A DNA stretch of 61,477 nt from Candidatus Coprovivens sp. (GTDB lineage: Bacteria; Bacillota_I; Bacilli_A; RF39; UBA660). Location of the stretch: NCBI GenBank assembly GCA_045654965.1, contig JAZOOK010000082.1, positions 1-61,477 on the forward strand, in the 5' to 3' direction. The notes under the pieces were generated by a model. It was not told the origin of the DNA. It did no database searches and worked only from the letters and a program-made list of their open reading frames with translations. Of this stretch, positions 729 to 55,152 are shown piece by piece. How positions within the stretch are numbered: the first letter of the stretch is position 1; every line of letters begins with the position of its first letter. Position numbers and translations under genes: made by a program.

Positions 729-751
729 AACCCTTCTACGGGGGAGGTAGT
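729..751 (+). repeat. GC-rich motif copy 1 (AACCCTTCTACGGGGGAGGTAGT), intergenic
   Basis: Read directly from the sequence. It starts 4 nt after the stop of 192-725 and forms the left arm of hairpin 735-767. Confidence 0.95.
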
Positions 752-767
752 AAGCCTCCTTCGTAGA
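735..767 (+). terminator. 13-bp hairpin (TCTACGGGGGAGG / CCTCCTTCGTAGA, 7-nt loop)
   Basis: All 13 positions pair, two of them as G-U in RNA. The right arm is a degenerate inverted copy of the motif. AT-rich sequence follows, with no clean T-run. Confidence 0.5.
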
Positions 768-781
768 TTATTAATTATATT

Positions 782-3520: not shown

Positions 3521-3803
3521 AGAAATTATAAAAACTATAGGAGATACTTGTAGTATTGGGTGGTTAATAATATGTTTCGTTTTTGCAGTGCTTGGAGTTT
3601 TTCATATAATATTTAAAGTTAATAATAAACCTAATACTACAAGTAATCCTATTTCTACTATAGATTCTATTAAAATTAGTAATGAAATACTAATAAAAGA
3701 TATAACCAATTTAGATAGTATAAAAAATGCGAAAGTTATTGAAGTTGAAACTATGGATAATGATAGTACTCTTATGTTATTCTATCAACTTATCGGCAAC
3801 TAA
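3501..3803 (+). CDS. small type-II membrane protein (holin or i-spanin-like)
   Basis: 100 aa with a basic N-terminus, then one TM segment (IGWLIICFVFAVLGVFHIIF). It overlaps the endolysin candidate by 20 nt and the next ORF by 77 nt in another frame. Confidence 0.45.
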   Translation: MNWKKFKEIIKTIGDTCSIGWLIICFVFAVLGVFHIIFKVNNKPNTTSNPISTIDSIKISNEILIKDITNLDSIKNAKVIEVETMDNDSTLMLFYQLIGN

Positions 3804-4092
3804 TACCAACATCCCTTCTACGGGGGAGGTAACAGCTAAATCAGATTCAGTACTTATAGCTTATTCTGATTTACGTATTGCTAATAGTAAAATGATTCAA
3901 CTAGAATATGAAAAAGAAATAAATAAAAAACTTAGAACTATTGTAGCTAACGATAGTATTACTATTAGAAATTATGATACTTTAAATAAAGAACTTAATA
4001 AAGAATGTAAAAAAACTATAAAACAAAGAAATATTTGTTTTGGTTTATTTGTAGTAAGTTTCGTAGCGGCAATAGTGTTATTGGTAAAATAA
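3727..4092 (+). CDS. spanin-like protein with signal peptide plus Cys and a C-terminal TM
   Basis: The N-terminus MRKLLKLKLWIMIVLLCYS looks like a signal or lipoprotein peptide, followed by a coiled-coil-like middle and a C-terminal TM (ICFGLFVVSFVAAIVLLV). It starts in the +1 frame inside the 3' end of 3501-3803. The 54 stop-free codons before the next Met in an AT-rich genome favour the long form, but a start near 3889 cannot be excluded. Confidence 0.4.
   Translation: MRKLLKLKLWIMIVLLCYSINLSATNTNIPSTGEVTAKSDSVLIAYSDLRIANSKMIQLEYEKEINKKLRTIVANDSITIRNYDTLNKELNKECKKTIKQRNICFGLFVVSFVAAIVLLVK
3813..3829 (+). repeat. GC-rich motif copy 2 (CCCTTCTACGGGGGAGG)
   Basis: It starts 10 nt after the stop of 3501-3803 and is read as IPSTGE in ORF 3727-4092. 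The upstream flank is CCAACAT. Confidence 0.95.
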
Positions 4093-9603: not shown

Positions 9604-10875
9604 ATGGCAACAGAAACTATTGATTTTGGTAATTCAGCTGGTCAAGACCATTCAGGTCAAGCTGATAACGATTCTGTAATTAACAATAAGGCTAATGATA
9701 ATCAAGTAGATATTACTAGTCTTGAAGGAGACGATGACGATGACATTACAGGTAAAGATGGTAAAGATAATAGCCAAGAAACATCAGATGATTCCAACAA
9801 CCTTTCTACGGGGGAGCTAAACCCTGGAGATAAACTAGAAGTAGATGGAATAGTTTATCAAGTAGCAGATAATGGCGATCTTGTAGATGATAAAGGTAAT
9901 GTTTTTAAAGAAGCTAAAGACGTAAATGAATGGCTTAAGTCTGTAGAAGTTGAAGATTCTAATGATGGCGGTTCTATCAATATTTCTGATATTCAAAAAG
10001 AAATCGGTATTGAAATTACAGATGAAAACGATACTCCTATTGAATTTACTAATGATGCTGCTGGAGTAAAAGCTTATGTTGATTCTGTAATTGATTTAAA
10101 ATCTAGAGAACTTCAAGAAGCAGCAGTTAATAGACTTTATGCTGATAATCCTTTGCTAAAACAATTTCAAGATTATGTTCAACTTACAGGTAGTGCTAGA
10201 GGATTTGGAGATATTCCTGATAGAAGCGGTATTATGTTGGACAAAGATAATGAAATGCAGTTAGTTGCAGTTATTAAAATGGCAGCTAATGAATTTGGTA
10301 ATAAAAGTCTTAACGATAATTATATCGCATATCTTAGAGATAGCGGAGGTCTTTATGATGAAGCAAAACAACAACTAAAGGCTTTGGTTGATAAAGATAA
10401 AGCTTATCAAAAAGAAATTGAACAAAAAGCTGCACAACAAAGAGAAGAACATGCTAAAGAACTAGCAGCTTATTGGAGTACAGTAGATAAACTTATTCAT
10501 GGTAGAGTAATTTCTGGTTATAAAATTCCAGAAAGTTTTACTAAAGAAGTTAACGGACAAAAACTAGTTATTACTCCTAAAGACTTTTTTAATTATGTAG
10601 CTAAACCTACTAAACAATCTGAAAATGGTAGAGCTATTACCGGTTATCAATATGATTTAGCAAATCTTACTGATGAAGAATATTTGAATAGAGAAATGCT
10701 TGATGCTTGGTTGATGTTTACAGGTGGGACTTATAAAGATTTGATTGATATGGCTGTTAAAGAAGATAAAGTTCGTCAGCTACGTATTAAAGCAAAAGAA
10801 CAACGTTCTAATAAAACTGTAAAAATTATTAAAAATCAATCGTCTAAATCAAGTATTGATGATATAATTCTTTAA
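9604..10875 (+). CDS. acidic coiled-coil protein (scaffolding-protein candidate)
   Basis: 423 aa with a strongly acidic N-terminus (DDDDDITGKDGKD...) and a Q/K/E-rich helical centre. It lies immediately upstream of the capsid gene and contains motif copy 3. Confidence 0.4.
   Translation: MATETIDFGNSAGQDHSGQADNDSVINNKANDNQVDITSLEGDDDDDITGKDGKDNSQETSDDSNNLSTGELNPGDKLEVDGIVYQVADNGDLVDDKGNVFKEAKDVNEWLKSVEVEDSNDGGSINISDIQKEIGIEITDENDTPIEFTNDAAGVKAYVDSVIDLKSRELQEAAVNRLYADNPLLKQFQDYVQLTGSARGFGDIPDRSGIMLDKDNEMQLVAVIKMAANEFGNKSLNDNYIAYLRDSGGLYDEAKQQLKALVDKDKAYQKEIEQKAAQQREEHAKELAAYWSTVDKLIHGRVISGYKIPESFTKEVNGQKLVITPKDFFNYVAKPTKQSENGRAITGYQYDLANLTDEEYLNREMLDAWLMFTGGTYKDLIDMAVKEDKVRQLRIKAKEQRSNKTVKIIKNQSSKSSIDDIIL
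9801..9817 (+). repeat. GC-rich motif copy 3 (CCTTTCTACGGGGGAGC)
   Basis: It lies inside 9604-10875 and is read as NLSTGE. The upstream flank is CCAACAA. Confidence 0.9.
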
Positions 10876-17550: not shown

Positions 17551-17899
17551 AACATCAGTTAGAGTTTTAGTACTTACTACAAAAGTTCTTCCTATTTTTA
17601 TTGCGATTATTCAATTCTTAAATGTCGTTATAAGTTTCTTTCATGGTAATGATATTCCTCTTAATTATATTGGAGGAATATCATTATTGCCATTATTATA
17701 CTTATATTTAGCTAGCTATACATTTAAATTGTGCGAATATTATAGAATGTTTTTGCATTATAGTGTTGTAGTAAATCTTATAAACATTTATGATTTTTAT
17801 TTTGGAATACCTATCACTGATATGGACTATTTGCTATTAATGGTTATGTTAACAATATTAACAATGTTAGTTGTAATATATTTAAAGTTTTTCAAATGA
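17525..17899 (+). CDS. multi-pass membrane protein (about 124 aa)
   Basis: There are three to four hydrophobic segments. I prefer the ATG at 17525 or 17531 to the track start at 17498, which overlaps the small basic ORF further. Confidence 0.5.
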   Translation: MNMEEKLNKTSVRVLVLTTKVLPIFIAIIQFLNVVISFFHGNDIPLNYIGGISLLPLLYLYLASYTFKLCEYYRMFLHYSVVVNLINIYDFYFGIPITDMDYLLLMVMLTILTMLVVIYLKFFK

Positions 17900-20447: not shown

Positions 20448-20465
20448 TTAAGTGATTAATATTAG

Positions 20466-20492
20466 TGGAGGAGATAATTCTCCTCCATTTTT
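20466..20492 (+). terminator. rho-independent terminator (GC-rich)
   Basis: The stem is (T)GGAGGAGA / TCTCCTCC(A) with loop TAAT, followed by TTTTT. It lies 19 nt after the stop of 20226-20447. Confidence 0.75.
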
Positions 20493-20505
20493 AATTATAA
20501 GATAT

Positions 20506-20928
20506 ATGAAAAGAGATAGTTTAGACTTATATGATGAATTACCTGAAGATATGGAACTTTATCTTCGTCATAATGGTAGACATTTTAATAAAAAACTATG
20601 TAGTTTTGCAATTAGCAAAATGAAAGTCAGAAACCCTTCTACGGGGGAGGTGACAAAACTAGACATAATGACAAAAGAAGTTATCGATAATCTACTTAAA
20701 GCAAATAAAGTAGTTTTAAAAGAAAATGAACTTTATGATTATGTTTATGTAGCTAATATGTGTAAAGCTGATTTTCTAGGTAGCAGTATTCCAGATGAAA
20801 GACATTTGTGTTTGTACGTTAAAGATGTTATAGATGATGTAGATGCTTATGACGGAATTGTATTTAATAGATGGTATGCTGATATGTGTAGAAAAGGAGT
20901 TCCTATAAGTTGGATTGATATGCTTTGA
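20506..20928 (+). CDS. hypothetical protein (140 aa)
   Basis: I prefer the ATG at 20506 because the GTG start at 20452 in the track would run through the terminator hairpin at 20467-20486. The gene contains motif copy 4. Confidence 0.5.
   Translation: MKRDSLDLYDELPEDMELYLRHNGRHFNKKLCSFAISKMKVRNPSTGEVTKLDIMTKEVIDNLLKANKVVLKENELYDYVYVANMCKADFLGSSIPDERHLCLYVKDVIDDVDAYDGIVFNRWYADMCRKGVPISWIDML
20634..20650 (+). repeat. GC-rich motif copy 4 (CCCTTCTACGGGGGAGG)
   Basis: It lies inside 20506-20928 and is read as NPSTGE. Confidence 0.95.
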
Positions 20929-21444: not shown

Positions 21445-21573
21445 AAATATTTAATATTTTAATTTCGTTTATTACATTACTTAAAAGTTAAGTCGATTAA
21501 TAAGTAAGGTCGCTATTATAAATAGAAATATGGACAGCTGAGATAGGTCAATCAAGGACTATACATTATTTCA

Positions 21574-21589
21574 GCACCCCCGTAGGAAG
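21574..21589 (-). repeat. GC-rich motif copy 5, reverse orientation and diverged left half (CTTCCTACGGGGGTGC on the minus strand)
   Basis: It is intergenic, 52 nt upstream of the ATG at 21641. It shares CTACGGGGGTGCT with copy 10. Confidence 0.8.
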
Positions 21590-21640
21590 AATTTATACTA
21601 ACAATAACATAATAAACAATATAATAAATGTAATAATAAA

Positions 21641-28366: not shown

Positions 28367-30210
28367 GAAGATATAAATTAAAAAAAGGCGGAAGATGTAG
28401 AGATAGAGCTATTTTTGGAGCTGCTATAGGTGCAGGAGCAACTTTAGCTGCTGCAGGTATACAAGCTGCTGCAACTGCTAGTGCTGCAGAAAAACAAGCT
28501 AAAGCTGCTATAGAAAACGCTAAAACTCAAGCTCAAACTATTAGAGAACAAACTCAAAATAGTAACAGACTTCAACAAGAAGCATTAGCTTTTACTCGTC
28601 AGCAAAATCAAGAAAATAGACAACAACAACAAGATATGCAAATGACTCTTCAAATGATGGCTGGTAAAGATGCTATGAATGATATTATGTCTAGTCAAAA
28701 AGCAGTTCTTAAACTAGGAGGTCAACCTAGAATGTCTATAGCTGGTAGTGTTCCCTTCTACGGGGGAGCTAGTACACCATTTACTGTAACTGATGGAGGA
28801 GGTGCGTTACCTATTGTTACCGATATTGCAGGAAATGGACTATATGAACTTATAGGTAACGATCATGAGCATTATCATAAAGCTCCTGGCGGTAAACATA
28901 AAACTGGAGTTGGTATTAAATTTAACGATGGTACTGTTGTAGAAGGAGAAGGTAATCAGAATACAAATCAAGGAGAACTACTTTATGTAACTCCCGATGA
29001 TGCAATGTTTATTTCTAAACATACTATAGCTGGATTTAATCCAGCTCTTGCTGTTAAAAATGGAGTTCATCCTGAAAAAGCTTTTGCTATTCAAGAAATG
29101 ATTAAAGCAAGTAAAGGTTTGAATGATGATGGCACTAAAAAAAGAAAAAGTATTAAAAAAAGTTTAGGAGGATATAGTGTTTTAAATAATACTGCTAATT
29201 TGACTCAAAATCCTTTTAATAGTAATATAGCTTTAGCAGCCGGAGGTTTTTATCCTACAAATAATAAAGCTAAACTAGGTAAACGGATTAAACTTAAATC
29301 AGGTGGTTTTTGGAATAATTACGGTGGGGCATTTGTAAGTGGTGTAGGTAATTTAATTGGAGGAGGTATTAATTGGCTAGGAACTGGTCTTGCCGGCAAT
29401 ACTTTAAGTAAAGCTTATAATACAGCAGGCGAAACTCTTGCAAATGCCTATAGACAAATGAAAGGAATTGATATGTCAGAACTTAAAATGGAAGATTATC
29501 AAGCTCCTAAAAGTATAGCAGTTATTCGTTCTGCAAATACTAATATAAACCCTCAATTAGAAAGACTTCGTAGAAATGCTAAAGCTGAACAACGAGAAAT
29601 TAATAGAGGTACGATGAGTTCTGCAGCTAGACAACAAAGACTTGCAGCAGTTAATGATAGAATGATGCAAAGAATGAGTGAACAATATTCTTATAAAGAT
29701 CAACTAGATGAACAAATTCGTCAAGGAAATGCTGAAAGAATTACACAAACTGCTCAAGCTAACGCAGATAGAGAAGCTGAAGCTCGTCAAAATTATGCAA
29801 CACAAAGACTTAGTTTGCTTCAATATAATAATAATATTGAAAATTCTAAACTTGCAGGAATTGCTCAAGCTCAAGCTGATGCTCTTACTCAAGGAGCTAC
29901 AGCTAAAGCAACTGCTTTACAAAGCGGTGTAGCTTCTTTAAGTACAGGATTAACTGCTACTGGAGCAGGTTTTGCATCTACTGCTGATGGTATTAGACAA
30001 GAACAGGCTAATTTAGATGCTATAATGTATAGAGCTGATACTGAAAATCAAATAAATTATTTGATTCAAAATCCTGGTATTAGAGGAAATTATGATAGAG
30101 CTCGTAATTTATATAATGTTTATAAAAATAGCGATAACGCTACATTAAAAGGTTACGCTATTCAACTTAACGATGTTTATAAATTTGATAATAATATAGT
30201 TTCTGATTGA
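28363..30210 (+). CDS. Ala/Gln-rich internal (ejection/cargo) protein candidate (615 aa)
   Basis: ATGA overlap with the upstream gene. There are glycine-zipper-like hydrophobic stretches (AIFGAAIGAGATLAAAGIQAAATASAA) and long Q/A/R-rich helices. The gene contains motif copy 6. Confidence 0.4.
   Translation: MRRYKLKKGGRCRDRAIFGAAIGAGATLAAAGIQAAATASAAEKQAKAAIENAKTQAQTIREQTQNSNRLQQEALAFTRQQNQENRQQQQDMQMTLQMMAGKDAMNDIMSSQKAVLKLGGQPRMSIAGSVPFYGGASTPFTVTDGGGALPIVTDIAGNGLYELIGNDHEHYHKAPGGKHKTGVGIKFNDGTVVEGEGNQNTNQGELLYVTPDDAMFISKHTIAGFNPALAVKNGVHPEKAFAIQEMIKASKGLNDDGTKKRKSIKKSLGGYSVLNNTANLTQNPFNSNIALAAGGFYPTNNKAKLGKRIKLKSGGFWNNYGGAFVSGVGNLIGGGINWLGTGLAGNTLSKAYNTAGETLANAYRQMKGIDMSELKMEDYQAPKSIAVIRSANTNINPQLERLRRNAKAEQREINRGTMSSAARQQRLAAVNDRMMQRMSEQYSYKDQLDEQIRQGNAERITQTAQANADREAEARQNYATQRLSLLQYNNNIENSKLAGIAQAQADALTQGATAKATALQSGVASLSTGLTATGAGFASTADGIRQEQANLDAIMYRADTENQINYLIQNPGIRGNYDRARNLYNVYKNSDNATLKGYAIQLNDVYKFDNNIVSD
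28753..28769 (+). repeat. GC-rich motif copy 6 (CCCTTCTACGGGGGAGC)
   Basis: It lies inside 28363-30210 and is read in a different frame, as PFYGGA. Confidence 0.95.
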
Positions 30211-36200: not shown

Positions 36201-39200
36201 AAGAATTAAATTCTGCACTTGAAAATTCGATTTCAGCAGATAATTCTGAACAGACAACCAATAATCCACAAGAAACACAATCATCAAACACAGGGCAAAT
36301 ATCAAGTCCACAAGGTCAAACATCATCGCAATCGCCCACAATTTCAACACAATCTCAAAAAGTTGATATAAGTACAAATATTGACGGAACTATATATTTT
36401 GATACTAATGTAGGAGAAAATGAAGTAGCTTATGACTATATAGAACAAGATAACGGAGATATAGTATTAAGTTTTCCTAAAGAAGTAGTATTTCCTAGTA
36501 ATTGGTTAAAAAATCAAGCATTATACGAAAATTATAATGAAAGTTATGATTCTGCAAAAGATACTATAGAATATCCTATATTACACAAAGATGAAAATGG
36601 TAATATAACTGTTAAACAAAAAGGGCGTATTATATATAATAATACCAACAACCCTTCTACGGGGGAGCAAGTTAAACCTGATACATCTAATTCTCAACCA
36701 ACTCCTATTCTTGCACCAAAGTCTACTCCAGTTCAAGAATCTACTAAAGAACGAGAAGATGTTCCGCCAGTATCGAATTTAGATGAAATTATTTTACAAA
36801 TAGAAGATAATATACAAAATGAAGCTAAAGCTATATTTGCTACTAGAGATGAAAGTAAAAATGTAGAAGAAGTAATACAAGAAATTGAAAATACATTAAA
36901 AGAAAATCATAAAAATGATGATAATCAAAAATATGTTCAAAATGCTATAAATAGATCTATTAGAATTCTTAAAGCTAGAGCTTTAAGAAAAGGTTTGATT
37001 AAAGCTGCTGCAGAAGTATTACATAGTGATGTTACAGAAATGCCTAATGGTAAATATGATTTTTCTGAAGAATACAAAAAACATGTAGTAGAAATGATCG
37101 AACAGTATTGCAGAGAAAGTGGACTTCGTAAAATAAATGGTAAATATTATATTAATTTAGAAGATGTTCTTCGTCGAATAAATAATTTATTTAATGAAGA
37201 CATGGCTAAATTAATGTTTGGAACAATAAATGCTTATCTTAATATATCAGAATCTAAAGAACATTTTGTAGTTATGGATAATACTACAAATCCTCAAGAA
37301 TTTTTAGATAATGTTAGAAAAACAGAAGAACAAAGATTAAAAGAACGTATAGGAAATAGAGAAGATAAAAATCATAGAGTTTCTATTGACCATTTATTTG
37401 AAAATCCTAGTGAATCTTTTTTAAAAACTTTTGATAGTATAAATAAAGGCGATAAACTTTCTATTAAATTAGAAGCTGGTGAAGTAAAATTACTTAAAAA
37501 TGGAGTAATTGTAGGAACATTACCTAAACCTTTGATTAACTCTAAAACTGGAGCATTTTATAAATATAATAATGGTTGGAGAACTGAAGTTTGGAAAGAA
37601 GGAGATAAAGTCGTAAGTAATTTAAGTTCTATATTTGAAACTATTCTTACAGAAGATAGCGAAGTTTGTAATTTTATAAATGATGCTATTACTGAACTTA
37701 ATTATGGTAATCCAAATAAAAAAAGAAAAGAAGAATTAATCGAAGCTATTTATGAAAAATTAAATACTGCTTTCGGAATTATAGATAATAACATAGTAAG
37801 TGAAAATAAAAGTAAAGAAGAAGTAATAAGTTATTTAGCTAAATTATGGAAATATATAAATGGAGCGCAATATAGTAAAGATGAAAGAAATGCTTGGATT
37901 TCAGATAGTTTAGAAACTTGGTTTGAAAAAGTATATGATTCGTATAGTTCTATAAATAATCTTATCGATGAATTATCTAACAATCCTACTAGTATAGAAG
38001 TTATAGTAGAAAATATAACTAGTGGAGAGCTAATTAGAATTGTAGATGATGAAACTAGAGGTGTAGGAGATAATTATAATAATTTTACTCAAGTAAATGA
38101 AGCTCTAGCCAATCCTAATGAAGCTATTTTGGGAATAGTAGATCCTTCTACTTCTAATGAACTTATAACTACAAATGGAAAAACTATAGTGCATAATCAA
38201 CTTGGACAATCAGGCACTCCTCATGTAGTAATTCCTAATAAAAATGGAATAGATAATTATGTAATAGGAACAGCTGTAAGATTTAATGATAAAAATTTAA
38301 CAGGAGATGTAAATATTATAATCGATTCTATAAAAAAAGAATTAATTTATAGAATAGAAAAACATATAGTTAATAATAACGGAAATTATCAAGAACTTTA
38401 TGATTTTTTACATGATTTATTAGATTCTAGTGCTAAAGGAAATAATACCGGATTATTGTACGGTGTAGCATTTACAAAACAAGCTAAAGATAGTTTAGGA
38501 TTTTTAATAAGTGTTGCTAGTAAAAATAGAGATGGGGCTTCTCTAAACGTTAAAAATGTAGTAGGTAAAAAATTATTTAGTTATAAACGTACTGGAAGTA
38601 CTGAATTTATTCAAGGAGATTTAAATAAACTAGAAGATCAAGTTATCTTTAAAGAGCTATTACTAGAAATACTAAATCAAACTAAATTTAATATTTCTAA
38701 AAACTATATACTTCCTGGTTATAAACCTAATGGTTTTGCAATTAAAGATGATACTGGTAAATTTTATATTAGTATTCCTAATTCTGCAGAACCTAGTAAT
38801 CCTACTAATTTTACTTATGATAATTTTCAAGATTTTGTATTTAAAGCCGGTATTATAAGGGTTAATACTAAAATAGAAAATAATAGTAATTATAAAAGAA
38901 AAGGCTTAAATCAAGCAGCTAATCAAATATTAGAAGTTAGTTTAAATAGAACAACCACCTCCCCCGTAGAAGAACGTTCTACAACTAATACTTCTTCTAA
39001 TTCAGAAGTAGAAAGTATTCTTAAAGATAATAGTGTTAAAGATAAAGCTACAACTATTATTGAAACTTTAGCAGAAAAAGAAATGCCTAAAGAAACGTTA
39101 ACAAAACTAAACTCTTTGCATTTATTACCTGAGAATATTATATTTGATGAAAACTTTAATACAAGAAATGATAAAGGTTATTGGGTTGGAAATAATGCAG

Positions 39201-44600: not shown

Positions 44601-47600
44601 AGATAAATTATTCGACCATAATCAAGGTATAATAAAACGTGATGAAAAAGGTAATGTAATTTATAGCGAACAATTATCTCAATTAGATAATCCAGATAGA
44701 GCTACTTATACTAACTATCACCATAAAAATTCTGTTTATTATGATAAAAACGGTGTAAAACATGAAGAAAAAGGTATAATTCAAAATGTATGGAAACCTG
44801 TTTATGATGAAAACGGAAAAGTAAAATATCACGAAAAAACTAATTGGACACGATTAAGTGGTAATGTTTTTACTAGTGATAGATTTACTTTATTTGATAA
44901 AGAAAATAATGTTAAACATAATTTTCTTAATGATATTTTAAGTGAAGAAAGAGCTGAAACAGAAGATGGTATGATACATATCCTCTACGGGGGAGCTAAT
45001 ACCCACTTACATATAAATTCAAATGGTGAAATAGAATTTACTGAAGCTCAACAAAAACTTATTGAAAGTAAAATAGAAGAATTCATAAAAGCTTATATTG
45101 AAGATACTATTGAAAGAGTAAATCCTTATAAAGTATTTCTTGAAGGAGTTCCTCATAATGAAAATGATATTGCAGAATTTATATTAAACTATAGATTAGC
45201 TTATATAAATTGTAATGATCTTTTTGAAGGAGATACTAAATTTTATAAAAGTACACAAGATTTTCTTAAAAGAGCTAAAGAAGTTCAAGGTTCTGGAGTT
45301 CCTTATGGCATTGTTGATTTTACAAAACCTATGTTTGGACAAGTTCACCAACCTGTAGAACATTCTTATCTTAATAGTGCAGAAATGCAAGCTATTGTAG
45401 GTAAACTTAATAATTGTAAACAATTTACTACATTTAGAGGAGCTACTGTTATAAATACTGTTAGAACTTCAAAAGAAAGTCAAGAAATATTGGTAAAACA
45501 GCTTACTGATAACTTTAAAAAAGAAAGTATAACTGAAGAAGAAGCAGAGAATAAAGCTAAAGCTATTATGAAAGGTTATAGAAATACTAAAGTAAACGAT
45601 GCTCAATCTTATATAACCTTTGAAGAATGGATTAGACGTATATCTGCAAGAGGTCAATTACATAAGTATAAACCTTTGATTGAAGCTATACTTGACGAAA
45701 CTAAACCTTTAAATGTAGAAGATATTAATGAGTTTATACAAGTTCAAAAAAACTTTTATTATGACCAAGTATATGATACAAGAACTGGAGTTATGGCTCC
45801 TCGTCAAATTAAAAATGCAGAATTTGTACTTGTTCCTCGTTTGATAAAAGGGACCGAACTTGAAACTATTTATAATACTATGATTCGTCATGGTATCGAT
45901 CAATTGAATACAGAAGAAACATCTAAAGCAGGTAAAACAAATGTTTTAACTTTATGGGATAAGGATGGAAATCTTAAAAAAGAATGGCTTGATGATTTTA
46001 ATATTAACATTCAAGGAGCTATAGAAACTTACGATTATAATTATCTATATACTCAACAAGAAACTCCTCAACATATTAATTCTGAAAATAAAGCAGGGGT
46101 TCAAATAATGAAAAAAATCTTAGATAATATAGATGAAAATAATGAACTTTATGCTGCTAAACAAAAAATTATTGAAAACTATTCTTATAATATTTATGAA
46201 AGTTCTCAAAAATTGATGGAAGAATTAAACATATCTTTCGATGATAACGGTAATATAAAAACTGATGAATATGGAAAGATAAATGGGTTAAACTATGATG
46301 TATTCTTATCTAAACTAAAAGATGAAATGGCACGATTAGGATTAGATAGTAATATGTTTGATTTTGTTACTAGAATAGATAGTTCTATTGAAACTGCTTC
46401 TGGTCAAAATGGCATAGGACTTCAAACAAAAATGCCTCCATTTTTAAATTCTAATCGTAAAAAACTAGAAAGTATTAGTAATGCTATTTTTAATAATACG
46501 ATTACTAGACAAAAACTTCCAGGATTTCATGCTGCTCAAGTTACTCAAATAGGTTTTAAACCTTTAAATGAAACTGTAGAAAAACATTCTTACAGTAGAG
46601 AACTTAAATATCATCCAAATGGAGAAAAACATATTGAAGTTATGTTACCTGCTAGTGCTTTTGGACTTGATAGAAATGCTTCAATGTTTAATGAATTGAG
46701 AGACTTATATAGAAGTCAAGGACTTACAATAGATGAAATAGAATCTAAAATAGATAACGCTATGTTAGATTATATAAAAACTAAAGGTCTTGACACTTTT
46801 ATAGGTTATCGTATTCCTACTGAAAGTAAAGCATCAATATGTGTTATGAAAGTTGTAGGATTTGTTTCTGAAGCATATGGATCTACTATTATAGTTCCTG
46901 ATGATTGGGTTGCTCAAACAGGTTCTGACTTTGACATTGATTCAATTTATGGCATTACTTATTCTATTAATAAATTAAAAAATGGAGGAATAGAAAAAAC
47001 TCCATATACAGGAGATTTAGCTAAAGATGGAAAAAAAGGTAGAAATAATGCTATCCTTGATGCAATGATTGAAATTCTTCAACATGATAATTCTTTAGAA
47101 GAAAATTTATCACAATCTCAATTCAAAGATATTATTGATGCTAGAGAAGAAATAGTTCCTAAAAATGTAGCTCTTGCTCGTGATAGTCGTTCTACTTATG
47201 ATTTTCTAGATCAAGCTGATTATTTTGAAGATGCTATTAGTGGTGCTAAACTTAAAGCATTTAGTGTAACTTTGGATAATCAATGTTCTTTATGTAACAC
47301 AGTAAAACCTGTATTTAGTAAACCTATATCTATAATTTATGAAGGAGATGATGCTAAATTTAAAGAATTACAAAAAAGATTTAATATAAATGATAAAGAA
47401 AATGTAATAAAATTATCAAATAATAAAATTTTAGTACATCATACTACATTAGGTTATAGTACAGATAATAAAAATGTAGAAGGCAAAATTATTACTGGAT
47501 ATTCTGCTCAAACTACAGCTCACCATCTAGATGCTATTAAAGAAGGTTCTATACCTAATGTTAACGATACTACTTTTGCTGTTTATAAACTATTTCCTAA

Positions 47601-50600: not shown

Positions 50601-53600
50601 TGATATTAGAGCTAAAGAATTCCAAGGAGAACAAAGAGTTAGAGAATTTAAAAAGTTTATAGCTACTACAATAGCTGAAGCTAAATCCAAAGGACTATCT
50701 GTAAATTGGGATAACTTAGTAGATAAATATGGTAAATGGATTACTGAATATAATGATAAATTTAGTGAAGATTTAGAAAATTTAGAAAACGCTAAAGATA
50801 ACGCTTATGCAGAATACAAAACAATAGAAGATGATTATGATAAATCGGTAGCTTTTGAAAAATATCTAAAAGCTAAACTTGCTTATGATGAATTTTTATT
50901 AAAACATACTAATAGAGAAATAGAAGATGAATATTATAAGCAAATGCTTGATATTGAAAAAAGCATGATTAATACAGATACTGGTAAATTTGCAGATATA
51001 TATGTTGAATATAAAATGTTAAATGACCAATTAAGAGATGTATTAAGTCATAAAGGAACTGGAGCATTAGATCCTCATTTTGAACAAAAGAAAAATGAAA
51101 TACTTAATGCTATTAAAAATTTACGTTCTGATGCTTATAAAGATGCTACAGGTAATTGGATATCAAAAAGAGATTTAGAAGAATATGAATTTTCTAATGA
51201 TGCTAAAATTAAAAGAAATCAAAATTTAAATACTCTTTCTTCTGCTAATCGTTTAACTACTTTTATTAATAAAAGAAATGAATTAAATGATAAATATTAT
51301 GAAAGAACTGAAAGATTTGGTTTTAAAGAACAACTTCAAAAATATTTAGATGTAATACAAAAATATGAACGTAGAAATTTAACTGAAGATGATTTAGCTG
51401 AAATTCCAGAATATGTAACTGCTAAAACTTGGGTAAAAGAAAATGCTTTTTATCAATATGACTTATATAAAGCAACAGGTACTACTCTTACAAAAAGAGA
51501 TGTTGAAAAATATCTTGAAGAATATTTTGATGGATTGTTTGATCCAAATGTAGATGATTTACAAATTAGAGTAAAAGCTGCTTTAGAATATTTTAAAAAT
51601 ACAAGAGGAGAACGTCATAATAAAAAAGCTGTATATAAACGAATTGCTCTTAAAGAAGATGCTAGAGATGAATTAGGTATTATAGATGCTCGTAAATTTG
51701 ATGAAGATGAAATAGCTGCTATAAAAGCTGAACAAGAAATTAAATTTAATATAGGAGAATCTGTAGCATATTCAGAAAGAAATATAATTCATAGTTCAAG
51801 TTCAGATAATACTATTTATACTTCTACTTTTTATGAAGGAATGAAAATTCATGGACTTACTAATCCTGAATATTTAAAAATAATTAATGGTTATAGTTAT
51901 GAAGAAAATGGTAGTATATACTTTGTTGATGGAATAAATACTATTCTTCGTAGATGCATCAACCCTTCTACGGGGGTGCTAGAAACTTCAAAACTTAACA
52001 TTGATGAAATTGAATATGTATTAGGACTTTTAGAAAAACTTGGATATGATAGACATGAACAAACTTTTACTACACAAGGTGGAGTTCGTAAATATAAAGG
52101 TGTAAGACGTAAAAATGTAAAAAAAGTAAATGAATTTATAAAAAAGAATGTAGAATTTGTTTTAACTGAAGAAGATAAAAGAAAATTTGATGCAGAAAAA
52201 GCTAAAGCTAGAACTATAAGTGATTCTTATTATTTATCTTGGTGTGAACTGAATCAAGAATGGAGTGAAGAAAGACAAGAATTTATTCCTAATCATTTAT
52301 TTTGGGGACATGCGCAACCTAAAACTTCTTTACCTAAAGAAGAAAGAGATAAATTTATTTCTAAACAAAAAACTGCTGCAATAAACATACTTAAAGAAGT
52401 ATTTACAGAAGTTCCTACTAAATATTATGAATTAGAACGAACTCGTATAGCAAATACTTATGGTACAAATAGTCCTGAATATGAAAAATGGATGTTAGAT
52501 AATCATGTTTATAATCCTAATACTCATAGATTAGAACCTCTTACTTGTTGGACTAAATCTGAGCCTAACTCTAATATGCCTGGAACTTGGGAACCTACTT
52601 ATCAAATGTCAGATAAATCAGTAAAAGAAGAATTTAGAAATCCAAATTATAAAAAAGGTCTAGGACTTGAAGCTAATTATAAAACTAATTCAAATAGTCT
52701 GTATAATAACAATGTAAAACTTAATGAATATGAGAAAAAAGTTAAAGATTATGTTCAAAATTTATTAGCAGCTTTAGCTACTACAAAAAAAGCTAAACAA
52801 TATATAGAAAAAGGTTATTTACCATCAAAAGCTGTAAAAGAAGATAAAAAATTCTCACAAATTTGGTTAAAAGAGTTAGCTAAAGGTTTTGGTTATGTTG
52901 AAGGTAATAGTGGTTATGAAAGATGGGATAATGATATATCTTATGATAATGATTATGTTCCAGATATGCCTATGTTATCTCAATTAATAACAAAAGATAC
53001 TCATAAAAAACCTTATAGAGAAATGTATAAAACTGATGAAGAATATAAAAAGGCTTTAGAAGATTATGAAACAAATAAAGAAAAATACGAAAAAGAAAAT
53101 GCTAAAATTCATAGTGATATTTTAGACCGTAATTGGGAAGAAGTAATATCAGAATTTATAATTAAAGCAGCTCATTATAATGCAGTTCAAGATAATAAAC
53201 TTCAATTATATTTTGGACAAAAACTTCTTAATGATATTTTAATTTATCAAAATAAAAATTATACATCATCTCAATTAGCTAAAGATAGAACACTATCAAA
53301 TGAAGAAACTACTATTTATAAAAAGAAAAAAGATGAAAATCTTCAAAAACAATATGCTAATTGGTGTCGTAGAGTTATATTTGATCAATTTAAAGAAAAT
53401 CAAGGTAGAAAAACTAGACTTATGACTATTTTACAAGGCATAACTTCTACTAATTATATGACTTTAAATATAAGAGGAGGTATAGCTAACGTATTAATTG
53501 GAGAAAGTAATATATTTGGTGAAGTTTTTGCTAAAGAATATTTTGGAGCTAAAGATTGGGCAATAGGTAAACAAATATGGATTAGCAATATTGCTAGTTT

Positions 53601-55107
53601 TATGGCTAATATGTATGACGATACTTCTACTAGTTTAGGTGATGCTATAGTAAAAGCCATGTCTATATTGGATTATGATGGAATTACAGGTCGTGCACCC
53701 CAAGCAGGTCTTGAAGAATGGTCAAAAAGACTAAGAGATGTTGCTTTTTCTCCACAAACTGTTACAGAACATTTTATGCAAAATGCAGCAATGTTTAGTA
53801 TGATGAATAGTCATAGAGTTGTAACTAATCCTAATTATGGTAAACCTGGACAACCAGAATATATTTTTATGAATAAAGAAGAATATATGTCAGAAAGTAT
53901 GAAATTAGCTTTATATGAAATAATGTCCGAAGAAGAAAAACAACAATTTGAATCTCATATTAAAGATATAAAAGAAGATCCAAATAAAGCAAAAGATTAC
54001 GCTAGATTTCATAAAAATGCTATTAGTACATTTGTAGTAACAAAACTTTCTAAAGAAAAACAAAATCTTTATTCTGAAACTGTAAAAAAATATAGAAAAG
54101 AAAAAGCTAAAGACTTTGAAAATCATCCTACTTTATATAGTCAATTTAAATTAGGTTCTGATGGTAAATTAGATTTTGCAGATAATTCTATATTAGCTAA
54201 TATTAATGTTTTAAAAGATAATCAAGAAGTTAGTGATGCTTATAAACTATTAGGTAAATTTAAAGAGCGTGTAATATCTGTAAACAAAAAGATTCACGGT
54301 AATTATGGTAAACTTGATGCTGCTAGTATAGAGTCTCAATGGTGGGGAAGTATCGTAATGCAATATCATAAACATATTTATCCTGGAATTATGAAACGTT
54401 ATCGTCGTCATGGATATTTCAATGAAGAAAGAGGTACTATAGAAAAAGGTTCTTATGTTGCATTATATGATTTTCTTACTACTCCTATTAAACAAATAGC
54501 TGAAAGAAATAATTTATCTGAAGGACAAACAGAAACTTTAGTTGGTATTCAAAATCTATTTGGAATGATAACTGATTATTTTCATTATGTAAAACTTAAT
54601 TATAATACCATGCCTGAATATGAAAAAGCTAATATGCGAAGAGTTCTAGGAGATGTAGCTGGTATGTTAACAGCAGTAATGATGTCTATGTTATTAAGAT
54701 TAGGTTTTGACGATGATGATGAAAGTGTTGTTTATAATTTAGGTTTATATGAAGCTGATAGACTTGCTACAGAAGCCTTTATGTGGAATCCAGTAGGACT
54801 TTATGCTGAAGCTAAAAAACTTTGGTCTAGTCCGGTTGCAGCTCAAAGTATAATTGGTGATGGTTTAAATATCATGGGTACTATTAGTGGAATGATTTTT
54901 GAAGGAGAAGATTATAATCCTTATTTTACTAGTGGTAGATATGCAGGAGAACATAAATTAGGAGTATATGTAGAAAGACGTATTCCTTATTGGAGAAATT
55001 ATGTAGCTTTAAGAGATATAGCAGAAAGTAATCATTATTATAAAATGGGAGATAACATACTCACTGTACTTCCTGTTAAAGAATGGGCTAAATCTATTAA
55101 AGATTAA
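41650..55107 (+). CDS. giant virion-packaged RNA polymerase-like protein (4485 aa)
   Basis: Uninterrupted 13.5-kb ORF at the end of the virion block. It contains 'GSDFDIDS' (a DxDxD metal-binding motif of two-barrel RNAPs), as in crAss-like virion RNAPs. Confidence 0.7.
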   Translation: MSKNCILTVNDSEVFKALKKRFGTNETEAFAKWVAVVENGEFTPAFQEWQKAKRKTEEIVTLDTANTRTIVNDIIAYYNTLYPDGNTTILHKKNNKSVKYNSTADRSFCQKIVAVEILDIFRNEHYTKNNAKSFTKQDYINEVRSRFFKRLLNRFNITNADIKPYISKNVNRFTNLVKFYIEQGVDKQSAMNLAMSVEAVNFVREKLGKNINIQDTNFLAVIEEMHDFNINENGVKIANAFFEEIFYNKKLEEIRRENKDEFNTAEEDKAQENENVNLGESTTESDDITNDEFDMSFRVFDSHDGQYATFTTHIGGNIRSYLNCLRKLKGTGLVNGQRYYDTDNAIGIAEAMDATTCAKVLYTQADFTNVSSMITSIRRIAETVSGFEGFIQFAEDLENNYDFAYEVYTTFGKMVISKTETYIENGERKVRISNTTADPVSALRFEYINQFRTSVTNDIHDFVANEVNQLTTELKKIKDAVAKGKIYDAKTKKLKNYNRETNYKEDKAKLVASLVKSFKRYLPSIEQSAILSYINNTKINGTIDELDNINVLINHLSNLVQGAKSSYAVYSSRLIEASSINRENNLLRQRQIEGEFISASKFKDPNSVWSESYITNNATSAVIQLANILVPYSVIKTELNSRNAKGNLSSDVINSNMITNFMTMLEHRLNYTNEENTPLKNYGAYKFRSKQYDLSNILVEKEKNGVIINYGLFKLENGKYIPTNYATDLIKMTLFNGISDFGNGKSAVYSEMSKGDYVTTAMINFWKSNHISNNSNIEFADYFMRIPSDAPKNFVMSAPKYSLTYKHGGKIINFWKIDNESQMNSRIRDLINNIPHNTDYEESLLDSQNISIKQATRILTGRTLDNINISNKKALYKNSNSLIGYLNVAVDGVNFIIKGTLNDNKTALTNVTLHGVIDNFGNAVAYGSELHAGLTDYYKRQLISGKIKLSDGSTVKRSINKEHPIFQQFYAVFKQEMQNAATAIDKLFDHNQGIIKRDEKGNVIYSEQLSQLDNPDRATYTNYHHKNSVYYDKNGVKHEEKGIIQNVWKPVYDENGKVKYHEKTNWTRLSGNVFTSDRFTLFDKENNVKHNFLNDILSEERAETEDGMIHILYGGANTHLHINSNGEIEFTEAQQKLIESKIEEFIKAYIEDTIERVNPYKVFLEGVPHNENDIAEFILNYRLAYINCNDLFEGDTKFYKSTQDFLKRAKEVQGSGVPYGIVDFTKPMFGQVHQPVEHSYLNSAEMQAIVGKLNNCKQFTTFRGATVINTVRTSKESQEILVKQLTDNFKKESITEEEAENKAKAIMKGYRNTKVNDAQSYITFEEWIRRISARGQLHKYKPLIEAILDETKPLNVEDINEFIQVQKNFYYDQVYDTRTGVMAPRQIKNAEFVLVPRLIKGTELETIYNTMIRHGIDQLNTEETSKAGKTNVLTLWDKDGNLKKEWLDDFNINIQGAIETYDYNYLYTQQETPQHINSENKAGVQIMKKILDNIDENNELYAAKQKIIENYSYNIYESSQKLMEELNISFDDNGNIKTDEYGKINGLNYDVFLSKLKDEMARLGLDSNMFDFVTRIDSSIETASGQNGIGLQTKMPPFLNSNRKKLESISNAIFNNTITRQKLPGFHAAQVTQIGFKPLNETVEKHSYSRELKYHPNGEKHIEVMLPASAFGLDRNASMFNELRDLYRSQGLTIDEIESKIDNAMLDYIKTKGLDTFIGYRIPTESKASICVMKVVGFVSEAYGSTIIVPDDWVAQTGSDFDIDSIYGITYSINKLKNGGIEKTPYTGDLAKDGKKGRNNAILDAMIEILQHDNSLEENLSQSQFKDIIDAREEIVPKNVALARDSRSTYDFLDQADYFEDAISGAKLKAFSVTLDNQCSLCNTVKPVFSKPISIIYEGDDAKFKELQKRFNINDKENVIKLSNNKILVHHTTLGYSTDNKNVEGKIITGYSAQTTAHHLDAIKEGSIPNVNDTTFAVYKLFPNIGSNYETAIAFMMQPGITAIVNNNNKNKSIYAKGYKNPINEAILDIAKALKLADNNTTYKKAEAILEKELIKYGLKDHNVLNSEILKQRLNVNETENSLSVKDLLFDYLVIKQYKELSNIATKLGNIARVTNPDKFGAKQTIFATNKVFEDIKEILLDSNPVFALYDGKSFLDRIYPGIETIIYDSIDNYLNNNDNNSAYPSLHYFLKYASAASIKINRNLFITQRPLFRTKVNLIKKVISGANPRISEDTYNLFESYILNSLYKEVKIISEPVTYIKGKGITSVEGNSQTEINRIFGYGYKADLQITDDSGNESFFEPKDINNLTQKEIDLFTKFTPAQKVYWIKQHFRDGLICNYIKSNTFNSNTYRKSIAGAQTIEFAEDNINIESVYDLFKNTYMNTNPLLALTAMDIIKYAFIVEGYRMKKGAVNKIIDNDILINPKGLEGTGIVDALNDIVNMYANDPSIESTEKLTENFVRSHSNISEIANTWINKENRAKYFKNINNGIETIFINDDTEQFLNSNNLGYTIEVENFDDDGASLGITKEFIANPYIKITYSSKSNTLYKIIRSKVSNVLYLLPLNLLQENETGMWSANNDNNKYMPIEWYEDIISTYEQSHETWEVKSLLGHINADTKTVKDYNKPENRTISKNTETTPFNRVKEKDSIDTLHDIISNHFNGTTSDMLILKNRLLENHIKNKGIENGLLETVNGNIYCIYKLNTSHLYKYTTEKGLNKTIEEKDKIFEKQIEKARNLGIDTGHKGQAHVNNLFAVVPYVHRTTPLSEEELASSVTEDIIKIDKAIKKEAYYEGTKESEKYVTQQKNKSVKDNLNDVVISTSEYLKVKVDNILNGDHGLNMFARDPETGSYLSITDPKVIELIKADPSLRRKYIKTILMANHLIDKFSSFNTFKYTEDNAHLKYYVEEINKTIKKLSESNILKEAEELYVTGYLASISNNPVIKDNIISLLDGFHSTSYLTSYIHDLQETANPIIQIITSDVMSDIRAKEFQGEQRVREFKKFIATTIAEAKSKGLSVNWDNLVDKYGKWITEYNDKFSEDLENLENAKDNAYAEYKTIEDDYDKSVAFEKYLKAKLAYDEFLLKHTNREIEDEYYKQMLDIEKSMINTDTGKFADIYVEYKMLNDQLRDVLSHKGTGALDPHFEQKKNEILNAIKNLRSDAYKDATGNWISKRDLEEYEFSNDAKIKRNQNLNTLSSANRLTTFINKRNELNDKYYERTERFGFKEQLQKYLDVIQKYERRNLTEDDLAEIPEYVTAKTWVKENAFYQYDLYKATGTTLTKRDVEKYLEEYFDGLFDPNVDDLQIRVKAALEYFKNTRGERHNKKAVYKRIALKEDARDELGIIDARKFDEDEIAAIKAEQEIKFNIGESVAYSERNIIHSSSSDNTIYTSTFYEGMKIHGLTNPEYLKIINGYSYEENGSIYFVDGINTILRRCINPSTGVLETSKLNIDEIEYVLGLLEKLGYDRHEQTFTTQGGVRKYKGVRRKNVKKVNEFIKKNVEFVLTEEDKRKFDAEKAKARTISDSYYLSWCELNQEWSEERQEFIPNHLFWGHAQPKTSLPKEERDKFISKQKTAAINILKEVFTEVPTKYYELERTRIANTYGTNSPEYEKWMLDNHVYNPNTHRLEPLTCWTKSEPNSNMPGTWEPTYQMSDKSVKEEFRNPNYKKGLGLEANYKTNSNSLYNNNVKLNEYEKKVKDYVQNLLAALATTKKAKQYIEKGYLPSKAVKEDKKFSQIWLKELAKGFGYVEGNSGYERWDNDISYDNDYVPDMPMLSQLITKDTHKKPYREMYKTDEEYKKALEDYETNKEKYEKENAKIHSDILDRNWEEVISEFIIKAAHYNAVQDNKLQLYFGQKLLNDILIYQNKNYTSSQLAKDRTLSNEETTIYKKKKDENLQKQYANWCRRVIFDQFKENQGRKTRLMTILQGITSTNYMTLNIRGGIANVLIGESNIFGEVFAKEYFGAKDWAIGKQIWISNIASFMANMYDDTSTSLGDAIVKAMSILDYDGITGRAPQAGLEEWSKRLRDVAFSPQTVTEHFMQNAAMFSMMNSHRVVTNPNYGKPGQPEYIFMNKEEYMSESMKLALYEIMSEEEKQQFESHIKDIKEDPNKAKDYARFHKNAISTFVVTKLSKEKQNLYSETVKKYRKEKAKDFENHPTLYSQFKLGSDGKLDFADNSILANINVLKDNQEVSDAYKLLGKFKERVISVNKKIHGNYGKLDAASIESQWWGSIVMQYHKHIYPGIMKRYRRHGYFNEERGTIEKGSYVALYDFLTTPIKQIAERNNLSEGQTETLVGIQNLFGMITDYFHYVKLNYNTMPEYEKANMRRVLGDVAGMLTAVMMSMLLRLGFDDDDESVVYNLGLYEADRLATEAFMWNPVGLYAEAKKLWSSPVAAQSIIGDGLNIMGTISGMIFEGEDYNPYFTSGRYAGEHKLGVYVERRIPYWRNYVALRDIAESNHYYKMGDNILTVLPVKEWAKSIKD
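44981..44996 (+). repeat. GC-rich motif copy 9 (TCCTCTACGGGGGAGC)
   Basis: It lies inside the 4485-aa gene and is read as ILYGGA. Confidence 0.85.
46927..46941 (+). other. DFDID (DxDxD) catalytic-loop motif, aa 1760-1764
   Basis: The codons gac ttt gac att gat are in frame with the 41650 start. Confidence 0.65.
51963..51979 (+). repeat. GC-rich motif copy 10 (CCCTTCTACGGGGGTGC)
   Basis: It lies inside the 4485-aa gene and is read as NPSTGV. Confidence 0.9.
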
Positions 55108-55129
55108 CTACCTCCCCCGTAGAAGGGTT
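55107..55129 (-). repeat. GC-rich motif copy 11, reverse orientation, identical over 23 nt to copy 1
   Basis: The + strand reads ACTACCTCCCCCGTAGAAGGGTT, the exact reverse complement of 729-751. It begins at the last base of the stop codon of the 4485-aa gene. Confidence 0.95.
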
Positions 55130-55152
55130 GTATAACTCTATAACCCTTCTAC
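55119..55152 (+). terminator. 11-bp perfect hairpin (GTAGAAGGGTT / AACCCTTCTAC, 12-nt loop) after the 4485-aa gene
   Basis: Both arms derive from the dispersed motif: one inverted full copy and one forward half copy. TATTTATAATAA follows. Confidence 0.5.

Follow-up and report, generated by a model that had tools for sequence, protein, structure and literature searches.

A dispersed, strand-specific sequence motif kept by nucleotide-level selection in crAss-like phages of the Intestiviridae

Why should one short GC-rich string recur, in both orientations, between genes and in several reading frames, along a visibly AT-rich phage genome? The question is raised by contig JAZOOK010000082.1, a stretch of 61,477 nt filed under Candidatus Coprovivens sp. 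and analysed here over its whole length ('the window'), which is the genome of a crAss-like phage. The records nearest to it are those of Wotdevirus murinus ctcc615 (MH552500) and Hacihdavirus cr271_1 (NC_055887, cr271 below), both of the Intestiviridae, subfamily Obtuvirinae; they match it over only a part of the structural module, where the nucleotide identity is about 78%. The string is the core of an 18-nt motif, YYCTTCTACGGGGGAGST. We find that this motif is a strand-specific, cis-acting nucleic-acid signal of the Intestiviridae, brought into being and maintained, where the coding sequence allows it, by selection on the string itself.

The exact 9-mer CTACGGGGG has 11 copies in the 61.5-kb window (eight on the + strand, three on the - strand), and the search bore out every position given in the initial annotation, a reading of the letters alone that had called at least 11 copies and had roughly estimated, assuming about 30% GC, that such a 9-mer should turn up far less than once in 61 kb. 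No match was seen in 100 dinucleotide-preserving shuffles of the window, and the degenerate 15-mer CYTTCTACGGGGGWG with up to two mismatches recovers the identical 11 sites against 0.04 expected. The G+C content of the window is 24-34%, and 11 of its 13 G5 or C5 runs belong to the motif. Aligned in orientation, the copies agree over 18-20 nt, from -5 to +12/14 relative to the C of CTAC, with the consensus CCCTTCTACGGGGGAG(G/C)T(A/G), and show no conservation outside this block; an upstream CCAACAA that had been described as shared by several copies is seen, as CCAACA, in only three copies of the window and is weak in the logo of the family. Three copies are intergenic (3/11, against 4% non-coding DNA; P=0.008) and eight lie within six open reading frames (ORFs), five being translated as x(P/L)STG(E/V), two as (F/L)YGGA and one, antisense, as SPVEE, all of which agrees with the initial annotation. 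The copies and the two elements that pair with them are as follows.

731..748, + strand: copy CCCTTCTACGGGGGAGGT, intergenic, 6 nt past the stop of ORF 192-725; 5' arm of the hairpin 735-767
754..771, - strand: degenerate inverted partner ATAATCTACGAAGGAGGC, which pairs with the copy at 731-748
3813..3830, + strand: copy in ORF 3727-4092, the small ORF directly upstream of terL; sense, IPSTGEV
9801..9818, + strand: copy in ORF 9604-10875, which lies between the genes for the portal and the major capsid protein; sense, NLSTGEL
20634..20651, + strand: copy in ORF 20452-20928 (DUF7841); sense, NPSTGEV
21573..21590, - strand: intergenic copy TCTTCCTACGGGGGTGCT, flanked by ORF 21067-21444 and by the tail ring protein gene 21641-22330
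28753..28770, + strand: copy in ORF 28363-30210; sense, PFYGGA
36652..36669, + strand: copy in the giant ORF 33233-41578 (virion RNA polymerase (RNAP)-associated protein); sense, NPSTGEQ
38957..38974, - strand: copy antisense in the giant ORF 33233-41578; the gene reads TSPVEE
44980..44997, + strand: copy in the giant ORF 41650-55107; sense, ILYGGA
51963..51980, + strand: copy in the giant ORF 41650-55107; sense, NPSTGVL; lineage-specific
55110..55127, - strand: copy, intergenic, 3 nt past the stop of the giant ORF 41650-55107
55119..55152, + strand: conserved hairpin, in which GTAGAAGGGTT (complement of the 5' half of the motif) pairs with a truncated + copy, AACCCTTCTAC, at 55142-55152

For the family comparison the window was set beside five Intestiviridae genomes, namely ctcc615, cr271, crAss002, cr3_1 and p-crAssphage. 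The motif is present in every one of the five, with 21-35 copies each, so the assembly artefact that absence from all relatives would have suggested is not at issue. It stands on both strands of ctcc615 and cr271 (about 20 copies each), in 31 copies of the variant CTCCTYTAYGGGGGAA in the cultured Bacteroides phage crAss002 (Churivirinae), in about 30 copies of the variant GTTCCTYTACGGGGGARC in cr3_1 (Crudevirinae), and in 32 copies of the variant CATCCTCYACGGGGRGT in p-crAssphage (Carjivirus communis, BK010471). All copies of one genome share the variant of that genome, and such lineage-specific uniformity is the signature of a co-evolving reader. The logo drawn from 171 non-redundant instances reads (C)A-N-Y-Y-C-T-T-C-T-A-C-G-G-G-G-G-A-G-S-T; its 5' arm varies between C and T only, TAC-GGGGG is invariant, near-invariance is contiguous over about 11 nt, and the conserved block across the Intestiviridae is 16-18 nt. 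The p-crAssphage copies split further into two subtypes, ...ACGGGGGGTC and ...ACGGGGAGT, with no evident link to strand or reading frame among the 32, and this phage tolerates C or T where the other subfamilies have an invariant T (CAC vs TAC).

Outside these genomes, a scan of IMG/VR with the 14-mer CTTCTACGGGGGAG returned, among the matches listed, multi-copy ones that are all AT-rich contigs of about 90 kb. The same 14-mer occurs in 185,579 bacterial and archaeal species genomes as scattered singletons only, with the exception of one contig, JAFRAK010000011.1 (93,767 bp, labelled a Bacilli metagenome-assembled genome, goat duodenum), which holds at least three copies and is probably a misbinned Intestiviridae phage and not bacterial DNA. 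The TACGGGGG motif was not found in crAss001 (Steigviridae, MH675552), a phage with the same host genus as crAss002. The motif therefore tracks phage phylogeny and not the host, and its reader is probably phage-encoded; a host repeat or host Chi was rejected on the same grounds, the bacterial singletons of the 14-mer and the different motifs of two phages that share a host genus. In place of the motif crAss001 carries a 9-mer of its own, CTTCTGGAG, in 27 exact copies on both strands (about 75-fold above expectation; 13 sense, 14 antisense), among which two + copies are never neighbours and the spacing has a coefficient of variation (CV) of 0.46 on the - strand (P=0.0008) and 0.58 on the + strand (P=0.08). 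This word, CTT-CT(G)-GAG, aligns to the Intestiviridae word CTT-CT(A)-CGGGGGAG, and the phenomenon may be order-wide, with family-specific words.

What is it that selection sees, the peptide or the nucleotides? The initial annotation had argued for DNA or RNA, and the comparison strongly supports it. None of the three outcomes that it had named as refuting was seen: the shuffles contain no copy, every related genome examined has the motif, and the relatives keep the nucleotides while the peptide and the flanks drift. The codons that spell the motif are the rarest synonymous ones of the window genome (ACG 2% of Thr, GGG 4% of Gly and CCC 1% of Pro; GAG 6% of Glu, TAC 7% of Tyr and TTC 8% of Phe). 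In protein-guided alignments of the window's coding copies with four relatives, 25.6% of the codon pairs that overlap the motif share the identical rare codon, vs 0.9% of flank pairs (Fisher P=3e-26). Plain synonymous identity, at 76% in the motif vs 68% in the flanks (P=0.28), is uninformative because strong codon bias keeps common codons identical (68% of flank codons).

The positions of the copies tell the same story. Several stand at one codon position in all three subfamilies where the adjacent protein sequence can barely be aligned; these deeply conserved copies are found in the primase, in the SNF2 helicase and in the two giant ORFs associated with the virion RNAP, and they include two that run antisense to their gene. 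The copy at 44980-44997 keeps its exact codon position in 5/5 compared genomes within poorly conserved protein, that at 9801-9818 has the identical codon position in ctcc615, cr271 and crAss002, and that at 28753-28770 has a matching position in ctcc615 and cr271, the crAss002 copy there being on the opposite strand. Same-strand orthologues of the antisense copy at 38957-38974 are found in ctcc615 and cr271 (exact codon position) and in cr3_1 (33-39 nt off when mapped from the window, exact among ctcc615, cr271 and cr3_1), and crAss002 50160(-) maps onto the cr3_1 orthologue. The small ORF upstream of terL has a syntenic, sense-oriented copy near its 5' end in 6/6 Intestiviridae genomes. The intergenic copies are syntenic too: 731-748 with ctcc615 44931, cr271 3526 and cr3_1 77149; 21573-21590 with ctcc615 70680(-) and the cr271 pair 31913(-)/31986(+); and 55110-55127 with ctcc615 12776(-) and cr271 66216(-).

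At the orthologous primase site three lineages have TTC TAC GGG GGA (FYGG) and crAss002 has CCT TTA CGG GGG AAT (PLRGN), one base out of frame; the DNA is therefore kept and the frame is not. The converse is seen at window 20634-20651, where TCT ACG GGG GAG aligns to TCT ACA GGA GTA in cr271, which keeps S-T-G in AT-rich codons and has no site. Fourteen lineage-specific sites were inspected against their site-free orthologues, and none was a clean insertion of 18-20 nt. Where the alignment is good (terminase, tail sheath, window 20640 and 51969), the site arose by substitution at unchanged length, often with a change of amino acid, as in the terminase (TAT TCC CCC ATA GGG AAG vs TAT AGT GTA GTA GGT AAA); the copy at 51963-51980 aligns in cr271 to sequence with neither site nor indel. 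Substitution without indels means that the sites were made in place and not inserted. Selection thus acts on the nucleotide string and not on the peptide.

Does the signal follow transcription? The initial annotation had stressed an 8:3 bias towards the transcribed strand, which is real in the window and is not a property of the family. Over the six genomes 114/144 copies lie in ORFs (about 21% are intergenic), 67 of them sense and 47 antisense (59:41). A ratio of 3:2 is expected because one antisense frame of the motif holds a TAG stop, the frames in use are three sense and two antisense, and the observed split fits that ratio (P=0.85); the 8:3 of the window, predicted by coding constraints alone, therefore needs no transcriptional explanation. 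Orientation is independent of the direction of transcription.

What the copies do respect is distance along each strand. The strand counts are 8+/3- in the window, 14+/9- in ctcc615, 17+/14- in crAss002 and 14+/18- in p-crAssphage. With sites called by position weight matrices (about 0.2 false hits per genome) and read along the genome, the strands alternate to a striking degree, as +-+-+-+-+-++-++-++-+-+- in ctcc615 and ++-++-+-+-+-+-+-+-+--++-+-+-+-+ in crAss002 (permutation P 0.0004 and 0.0002, respectively; cr271 0.015, cr3_1 0.056, p-crAssphage 0.04). Copies on one strand are spaced much more evenly than chance would give in the following series.

Window, + strand: CV 0.30, P=0.003
Window, - strand (gaps of 17.4 and 16.2 kb): CV 0.04, P=0.04
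ctcc615, + strand: CV 0.32, P=0.0002
crAss002, + strand: CV 0.40, P<0.0001
crAss002, - strand: CV 0.45, P=0.002
cr271, + strand: CV 0.43, P=0.004
p-crAssphage, - strand: CV 0.31, P=0.0001
p-crAssphage, + strand: CV 0.50, P=0.005

A copy is met about every 5-8 kb on each strand, and the spacing of both strands pooled is less regular than that of each strand alone. Simulation of two independent, evenly spaced strands reproduced the observed alternation (P=0.12-0.25), so even spacing per strand can account for it; paired units, significant as alternation is against random labels, were for that reason rejected as the primary feature. At short range, inverted pairs within 250 bp are enriched (13 vs 4.9 expected, P=0.002), direct pairs are absent (0 vs 4.9, P=0.008), and some opposite-strand pairs are merely 25-35 bp apart. 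The initial annotation had not noticed the most telling of these properties, namely occurrence throughout the family, even spacing per strand and the excess of inverted pairs.

A function that calls for a correctly oriented copy no farther away than some limit on both strands, whatever genes lie there, would suggest DNA metabolism and not gene expression; the users of such copies could be replication forks or resecting nucleases moving either way. We tentatively favour a role as dispersed priming sites on the single strand, read by a co-evolving component of the DNA metabolism of the phage, a possibility of which single-strand reading, the identity of the reader and priming are all parts that we infer. 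The G-rich strand would be read single-stranded by this phage-encoded component, and the dispersed single-strand initiation sites would bound the length of discontinuously synthesised DNA in either fork direction. The pyrimidine run would be the template that is copied and the G run the flank that is recognized. Intergenic copies, as inverted pairs, may in addition form hairpins, terminator-like in the window and origin-like around the AT-rich spacers of p-crAssphage.

Priming is favoured for three reasons. Y-T-A at the junction of pyrimidines and G is invariant (C-T-G in crAss001), like the start trinucleotides of DnaG-type primases, for which YTA and CTG are initiation trinucleotides. The words of the Intestiviridae and of crAss001 align as CTT-CT(A/G)-G-rich. 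Lastly, opposed pairs flank AT-rich spacers beside the initiator genes of p-crAssphage. In that genome two divergent motif pairs flank paralogous spacers of 70-90 nt (28083-28177 and 95751-95869), 0.3-0.6 kb upstream of two RepL-like genes (gp43, gp88), and these spacers look like candidate replication origins.

Several observations weigh against priming on the single strand. The compositional sawtooth in GC and AT skew that priming predicts between same-strand sites is absent (t=-1.0 and 0.3). To our knowledge, primase recognition sites measure 3-5 nt and no primase reads 16-18 nt, and the single-strand initiation signals that we know of are single-copy origin elements, not 20-35 dispersed copies. 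The primase of the family matches PHROG 12622 'DNA primase' only, with no match in Pfam or the PDB, and has diverged too far to be classified. No RepL homologue turned up in the other five genomes, and RepL, being confined to p-crAssphage, was rejected as a general link to the motif. When sites are called strictly, the - strand copies of ctcc615 and of cr271 are not significantly even in their spacing, and alternation with mild overall evenness fits the spacing about as well as independent strands do. The small hairpin of the motif lacks covariation, its outer pairs are not significantly paired, and the crAss001 word CTTCTGGAG forms no convincing hairpin. Finally, the sequences of the hairpins at 735-767 and 55119-55152 look like terminators, which fits an RNA-level role for those copies.

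A Chi-like 'self' mark that halts a phage helicase-nuclease is an alternative that fits the spacing equally well. The two readings have a common, wider form, in which Crassvirales genomes would carry a lineage-private, strand-specific 'address code', a word every 5-8 kb per strand, placed by selection strong enough to alter proteins and read by phage machinery; this code might prime or organize the synthesis of both DNA strands, or it might tell a phage helicase-nuclease that the DNA is the phage's own, and the Steigviridae (crAss001) would use a different word for a matching purpose. We regard this generalization as rather doubtful.

Could the motif act instead as RNA? Its hairpins might terminate transcription, stabilize 3' ends or be bound or cut by a phage or host protein, or neighbouring opposite-strand copies could pair over long range within polycistronic RNA. 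The G-rich strand can form a small hairpin of five or six Y-G or U-A pairs with a UAC or UACG loop, and the G-U pairs confine this local hairpin to that strand; the cr3_1 variant gives a clean 7-bp stem (GUUCCUC-UACG-GGGGAAC), and the enrichment of inverted pairs agrees with such a role. Of the three intergenic copies of the window, two lie in strong hairpins directly after stop codons and ahead of A/T-rich sequence with no U tract proper. The one at 735-767, formed by copy 731-748 and its partner at 754-771, has a folding free energy (dG) of -27.4 kcal/mol (z -4.8) and that at 55119-55152 one of -20.7 kcal/mol (z -5.6). Five genomes conserve the latter, past the giant ORF: 12 pairs are predicted, 11 bp of them form a core stem in which no pair is broken, and three pairs show compensatory double changes. 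For these two composite hairpins an RNA role is likely.

For the motif at large we consider it unlikely. The small hairpin pointed out in the initial annotation is sterically possible, but its inner pairs say nothing about covariation, since the G run is invariant; that the 5' arm varies between pyrimidines only agrees with pairing to G and is no proof of it; and the in-ORF copies of the window fold no better than shuffles (z -0.4 to -1.2). The intergenic copy 21573-21590 shows no local structure (z about 0), and Rfam 15 gave no match at the gathering threshold across the whole window. About 40% of coding copies, deeply conserved ones included, are antisense to the mRNA, a split that coding constraints predict; terminators or RNase sites within essential ORFs would be harmful, and it is hard to see what an RNA element would gain from even spacing on each DNA strand.

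Duplex DNA offers another explanation, in which the copies are sites for an architectural or regulatory phage protein that acts by stoperator-like silencing, as a roadblock, in condensation or in pac-like packaging. An asymmetric 18-bp site with genome-uniform lineage variants fits co-evolution with a protein, the arms of the cr3_1 variant are palindromic (GTTCC...GGAAC), close inverted pairs could serve a dimer, and the syntenic copy that all six genomes have in the ORF ahead of terL recalls pac sites within terS. Yet spacing is more regular per strand than pooled, which favours a reader that is strand-specific; a site with about 11 invariant nt in a row and a 5' arm of pyrimidines only would be unusual for a dimer on duplex DNA; and stoperators are mostly intergenic and oriented with transcription, which the motif is not. 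Two candidate proteins fail as well. The HTH_17 (helix-turn-helix) protein at 17896-18201, which the initial annotation had put forward as binder and which is the sole such protein of the window, is detectable in the Obtuvirinae only, whereas the motif is family-wide, and it was discarded as reader. ORF 21641-22330, called 'IHF subunit / histone-like protein' in older crAss annotation, matches Pfam CrAss_Ring_2 (E=4e-49) and is tail ring protein 2, not a DNA-bending factor, which removes an IHF-like reader. Duplex binding is in our judgement an improbable account.

Nicking by a phage enzyme, which would leave programmed single-strand interruptions as in T5, phiKMV-like phages and phage tf, seems very unlikely. 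It would explain dispersed, conserved, asymmetric intragenic sites at similar positions among relatives, as in the tf-like and phiKMV-like phages, and the motif-bearing phages do encode HNH, GIY-YIG and PD-(D/E)XK nucleases, the last (1896-2900) being 55-80% identical across all motif-bearing genomes. The known systems, however, mark one strand only, whereas the motif is about equal on both; opposite-strand pairs 25-35 bp apart would risk double-strand breaks; and nick-free T5 mutants are viable, whereas selection on the motif overrides codon usage and changes amino acids. A miniature mobile element (of the kind of miniature inverted-repeat transposable elements (MITEs), repetitive extragenic palindromic (REP) sequences or GC clusters) inserted in frame, as the initial annotation had envisaged, or a conserved peptide (xPSTGE, FYGG) would suit a short GC-rich repeat found in both orientations in an AT-rich genome and, for five window copies, in one reading frame, but is scarcely worth entertaining: rare codons, conserved position, change of frame, site-free peptide in ordinary codons and origin by substitution without indels together exclude both, many sites hold identical codon positions across subfamilies, five frames are used (three sense, two antisense) and one orthologous site is read in different frames, and there is neither flanking conservation, nor target duplication, nor an annotated transposase.

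Four resemblances of the string, to a Cas12a-like repeat (UCUAC...GUAGA), to the poxvirus topoisomerase site (CCCTT), to a Shine-Dalgarno-like GGAGG and to 16S helix 14, were rejected, each being confined to some lineages.

Some neighbouring genes deserve mention in their own right. The unannotated ORF 1278-1892, directly upstream of the PD-(D/E)XK gene, is 42-77% identical across the motif-bearing genomes; its product and that of ORF 1896-2900 are among the best conserved Intestiviridae proteins, are encoded where the late gene block begins, a long way from recT, and gave no tblastn match in crAss001. Structure models predicted from the single sequences of ORF 3727-4092 and ORF 1278-1892 (predicted local distance difference test, pLDDT, 59 and 52) were too poor for a fold search, and in the former the motif-encoded residues fall within a low-confidence segment. 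If ORF 3727-4092 is the small terminase, its copy recalls the pac sites inside terS genes. The giant ORF 33233-41578 ends in an ART-PolyVal domain (ADP-ribosyltransferase of polyvalent proteins; residues 2539-2729, Pfam E=3e-8), and in relatives the annotation of this ORF is an RNAP-associated protein in fusion with a zincin protease. The motif-bearing phages also encode Gam-like inhibitors of host nucleases.

The crAss-like phages dominate the human gut virome, and p-crAssphage is the most abundant human gut virus; for all that dominance, their replication, regulation and genome maintenance are little understood. The motif is a family-wide, strongly selected feature, with an uncommon arrangement along the genome that is statistically robust, and appears undescribed: the string was not found printed in a phage context, in a literature search that was incomplete, so that an earlier description is possible. 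It is among the strongest non-coding constraints in these genomes, overriding codon usage, changing amino acids and surviving at one codon across subfamilies when the flanking protein has diverged. Two cultured systems, crAss002 and, with its own word, crAss001, offer 20-35 sites per genome whose positions are exactly known. The motif is also a simple sequence signature for recognizing Intestiviridae DNA and sub-typing its lineages, and it flags positions to leave unrecoded when these phages are engineered. Should the reader be the primase, the virion RNAP or a nuclease, the motif would open up the mechanism of replication or of a self-recognition system; the address code, if true, would amount to a kind of genome-wide cis-element for which no counterpart in phages is described, and p-crAssphage would have it.

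How does the motif compare with known dispersed elements? Stoperators, the sites of the L5 repressor in cluster A mycobacteriophages, number 20-35 copies of 13-14 bp, are asymmetric and genome-wide, and serve prophage silencing. Like the motif they are specific to a phage lineage and co-evolve with a phage protein; unlike it they lie mostly in short intergenic regions and follow transcription, whereas the motif is about 80% coding and independent of orientation, in phages not known to be temperate. Promoters of T7-type RNAPs and of the N4 virion RNAP are likewise phage-specific sequences of 17-23 nt repeated along the genome, and those of N4 are small hairpins that a virion RNAP reads on single-stranded DNA once this is extruded; crAss phages carry a virion RNAP too, and theirs prefers single-stranded templates. 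Phage promoters, however, stand upstream of genes and are co-oriented with them, whereas the motif is mostly in ORFs (8/11 in the window) and about 40% antisense. No common motif was found upstream of the early transcripts of phi14:2, and the promoters described for phi14:2 and crAss001 are others. REP sequences, bacterial interspersed mosaic elements (BIMEs) and organelle GC clusters share with the motif the form of short, GC-rich, imperfect palindromes, often in inverted pairs and in both orientations, but are insertions, mostly intergenic and of variable position, while the motif is born by substitution at fixed codon positions and has no flanking signature. The nick sites of T5, phiKMV-like phages and Pseudomonas phage tf are dispersed, asymmetric consensus sites of 9-19 nt, from a handful to 14 copies, intragenic and at similar positions among relatives, and all lie on one strand (PMC3517423). 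The motif differs from them in occupying both strands, evenly on each, in more copies and under stronger selection.

Chi (crossover hotspot instigator), the signal of RecBCD and AddAB, is likewise a G-rich asymmetric oligomer read on one strand, over-represented, present on both strands, intragenic in any frame and needed within a bounded distance of any DNA end. Chi is 5-8 nt long, against 16-18 nt for the motif (9 nt for the crAss001 word), and it is set by a host enzyme and over-represented in the host, whereas the motif follows phage phylogeny, its 14-mer is not enriched in bacteria, and the phages that bear it encode the Gam-like inhibitors mentioned above. We know of no phage-private Chi.

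Single-strand initiation (ssi) signals, such as the complementary-strand origin of phage G4, ssiA and ssiB of RSF1010, which are read by the RepB' primase, and the mitochondrial OriL, combine a strand-specific sequence with a small hairpin that a primase or RNAP reads on single-stranded DNA. They occur as opposed pairs at origins, which the p-crAssphage pairs by the RepL-like genes resemble. They measure 40-150 nt, are intergenic and occur once or twice per replicon, where the motif has 18 nt and 20-35 mostly intragenic copies. The motif fails the defining tests of Chi, localized nick sites, stoperators, promoters, REP or MITE elements and peptide motifs; that it is a categorically new kind of system is a possibility we hold in some doubt. 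By analogy it appears to resemble the ssi signals in logic, though not in copy number or location, and on a conservative view it belongs to the general kind of dispersed, strand-specific genome signals.

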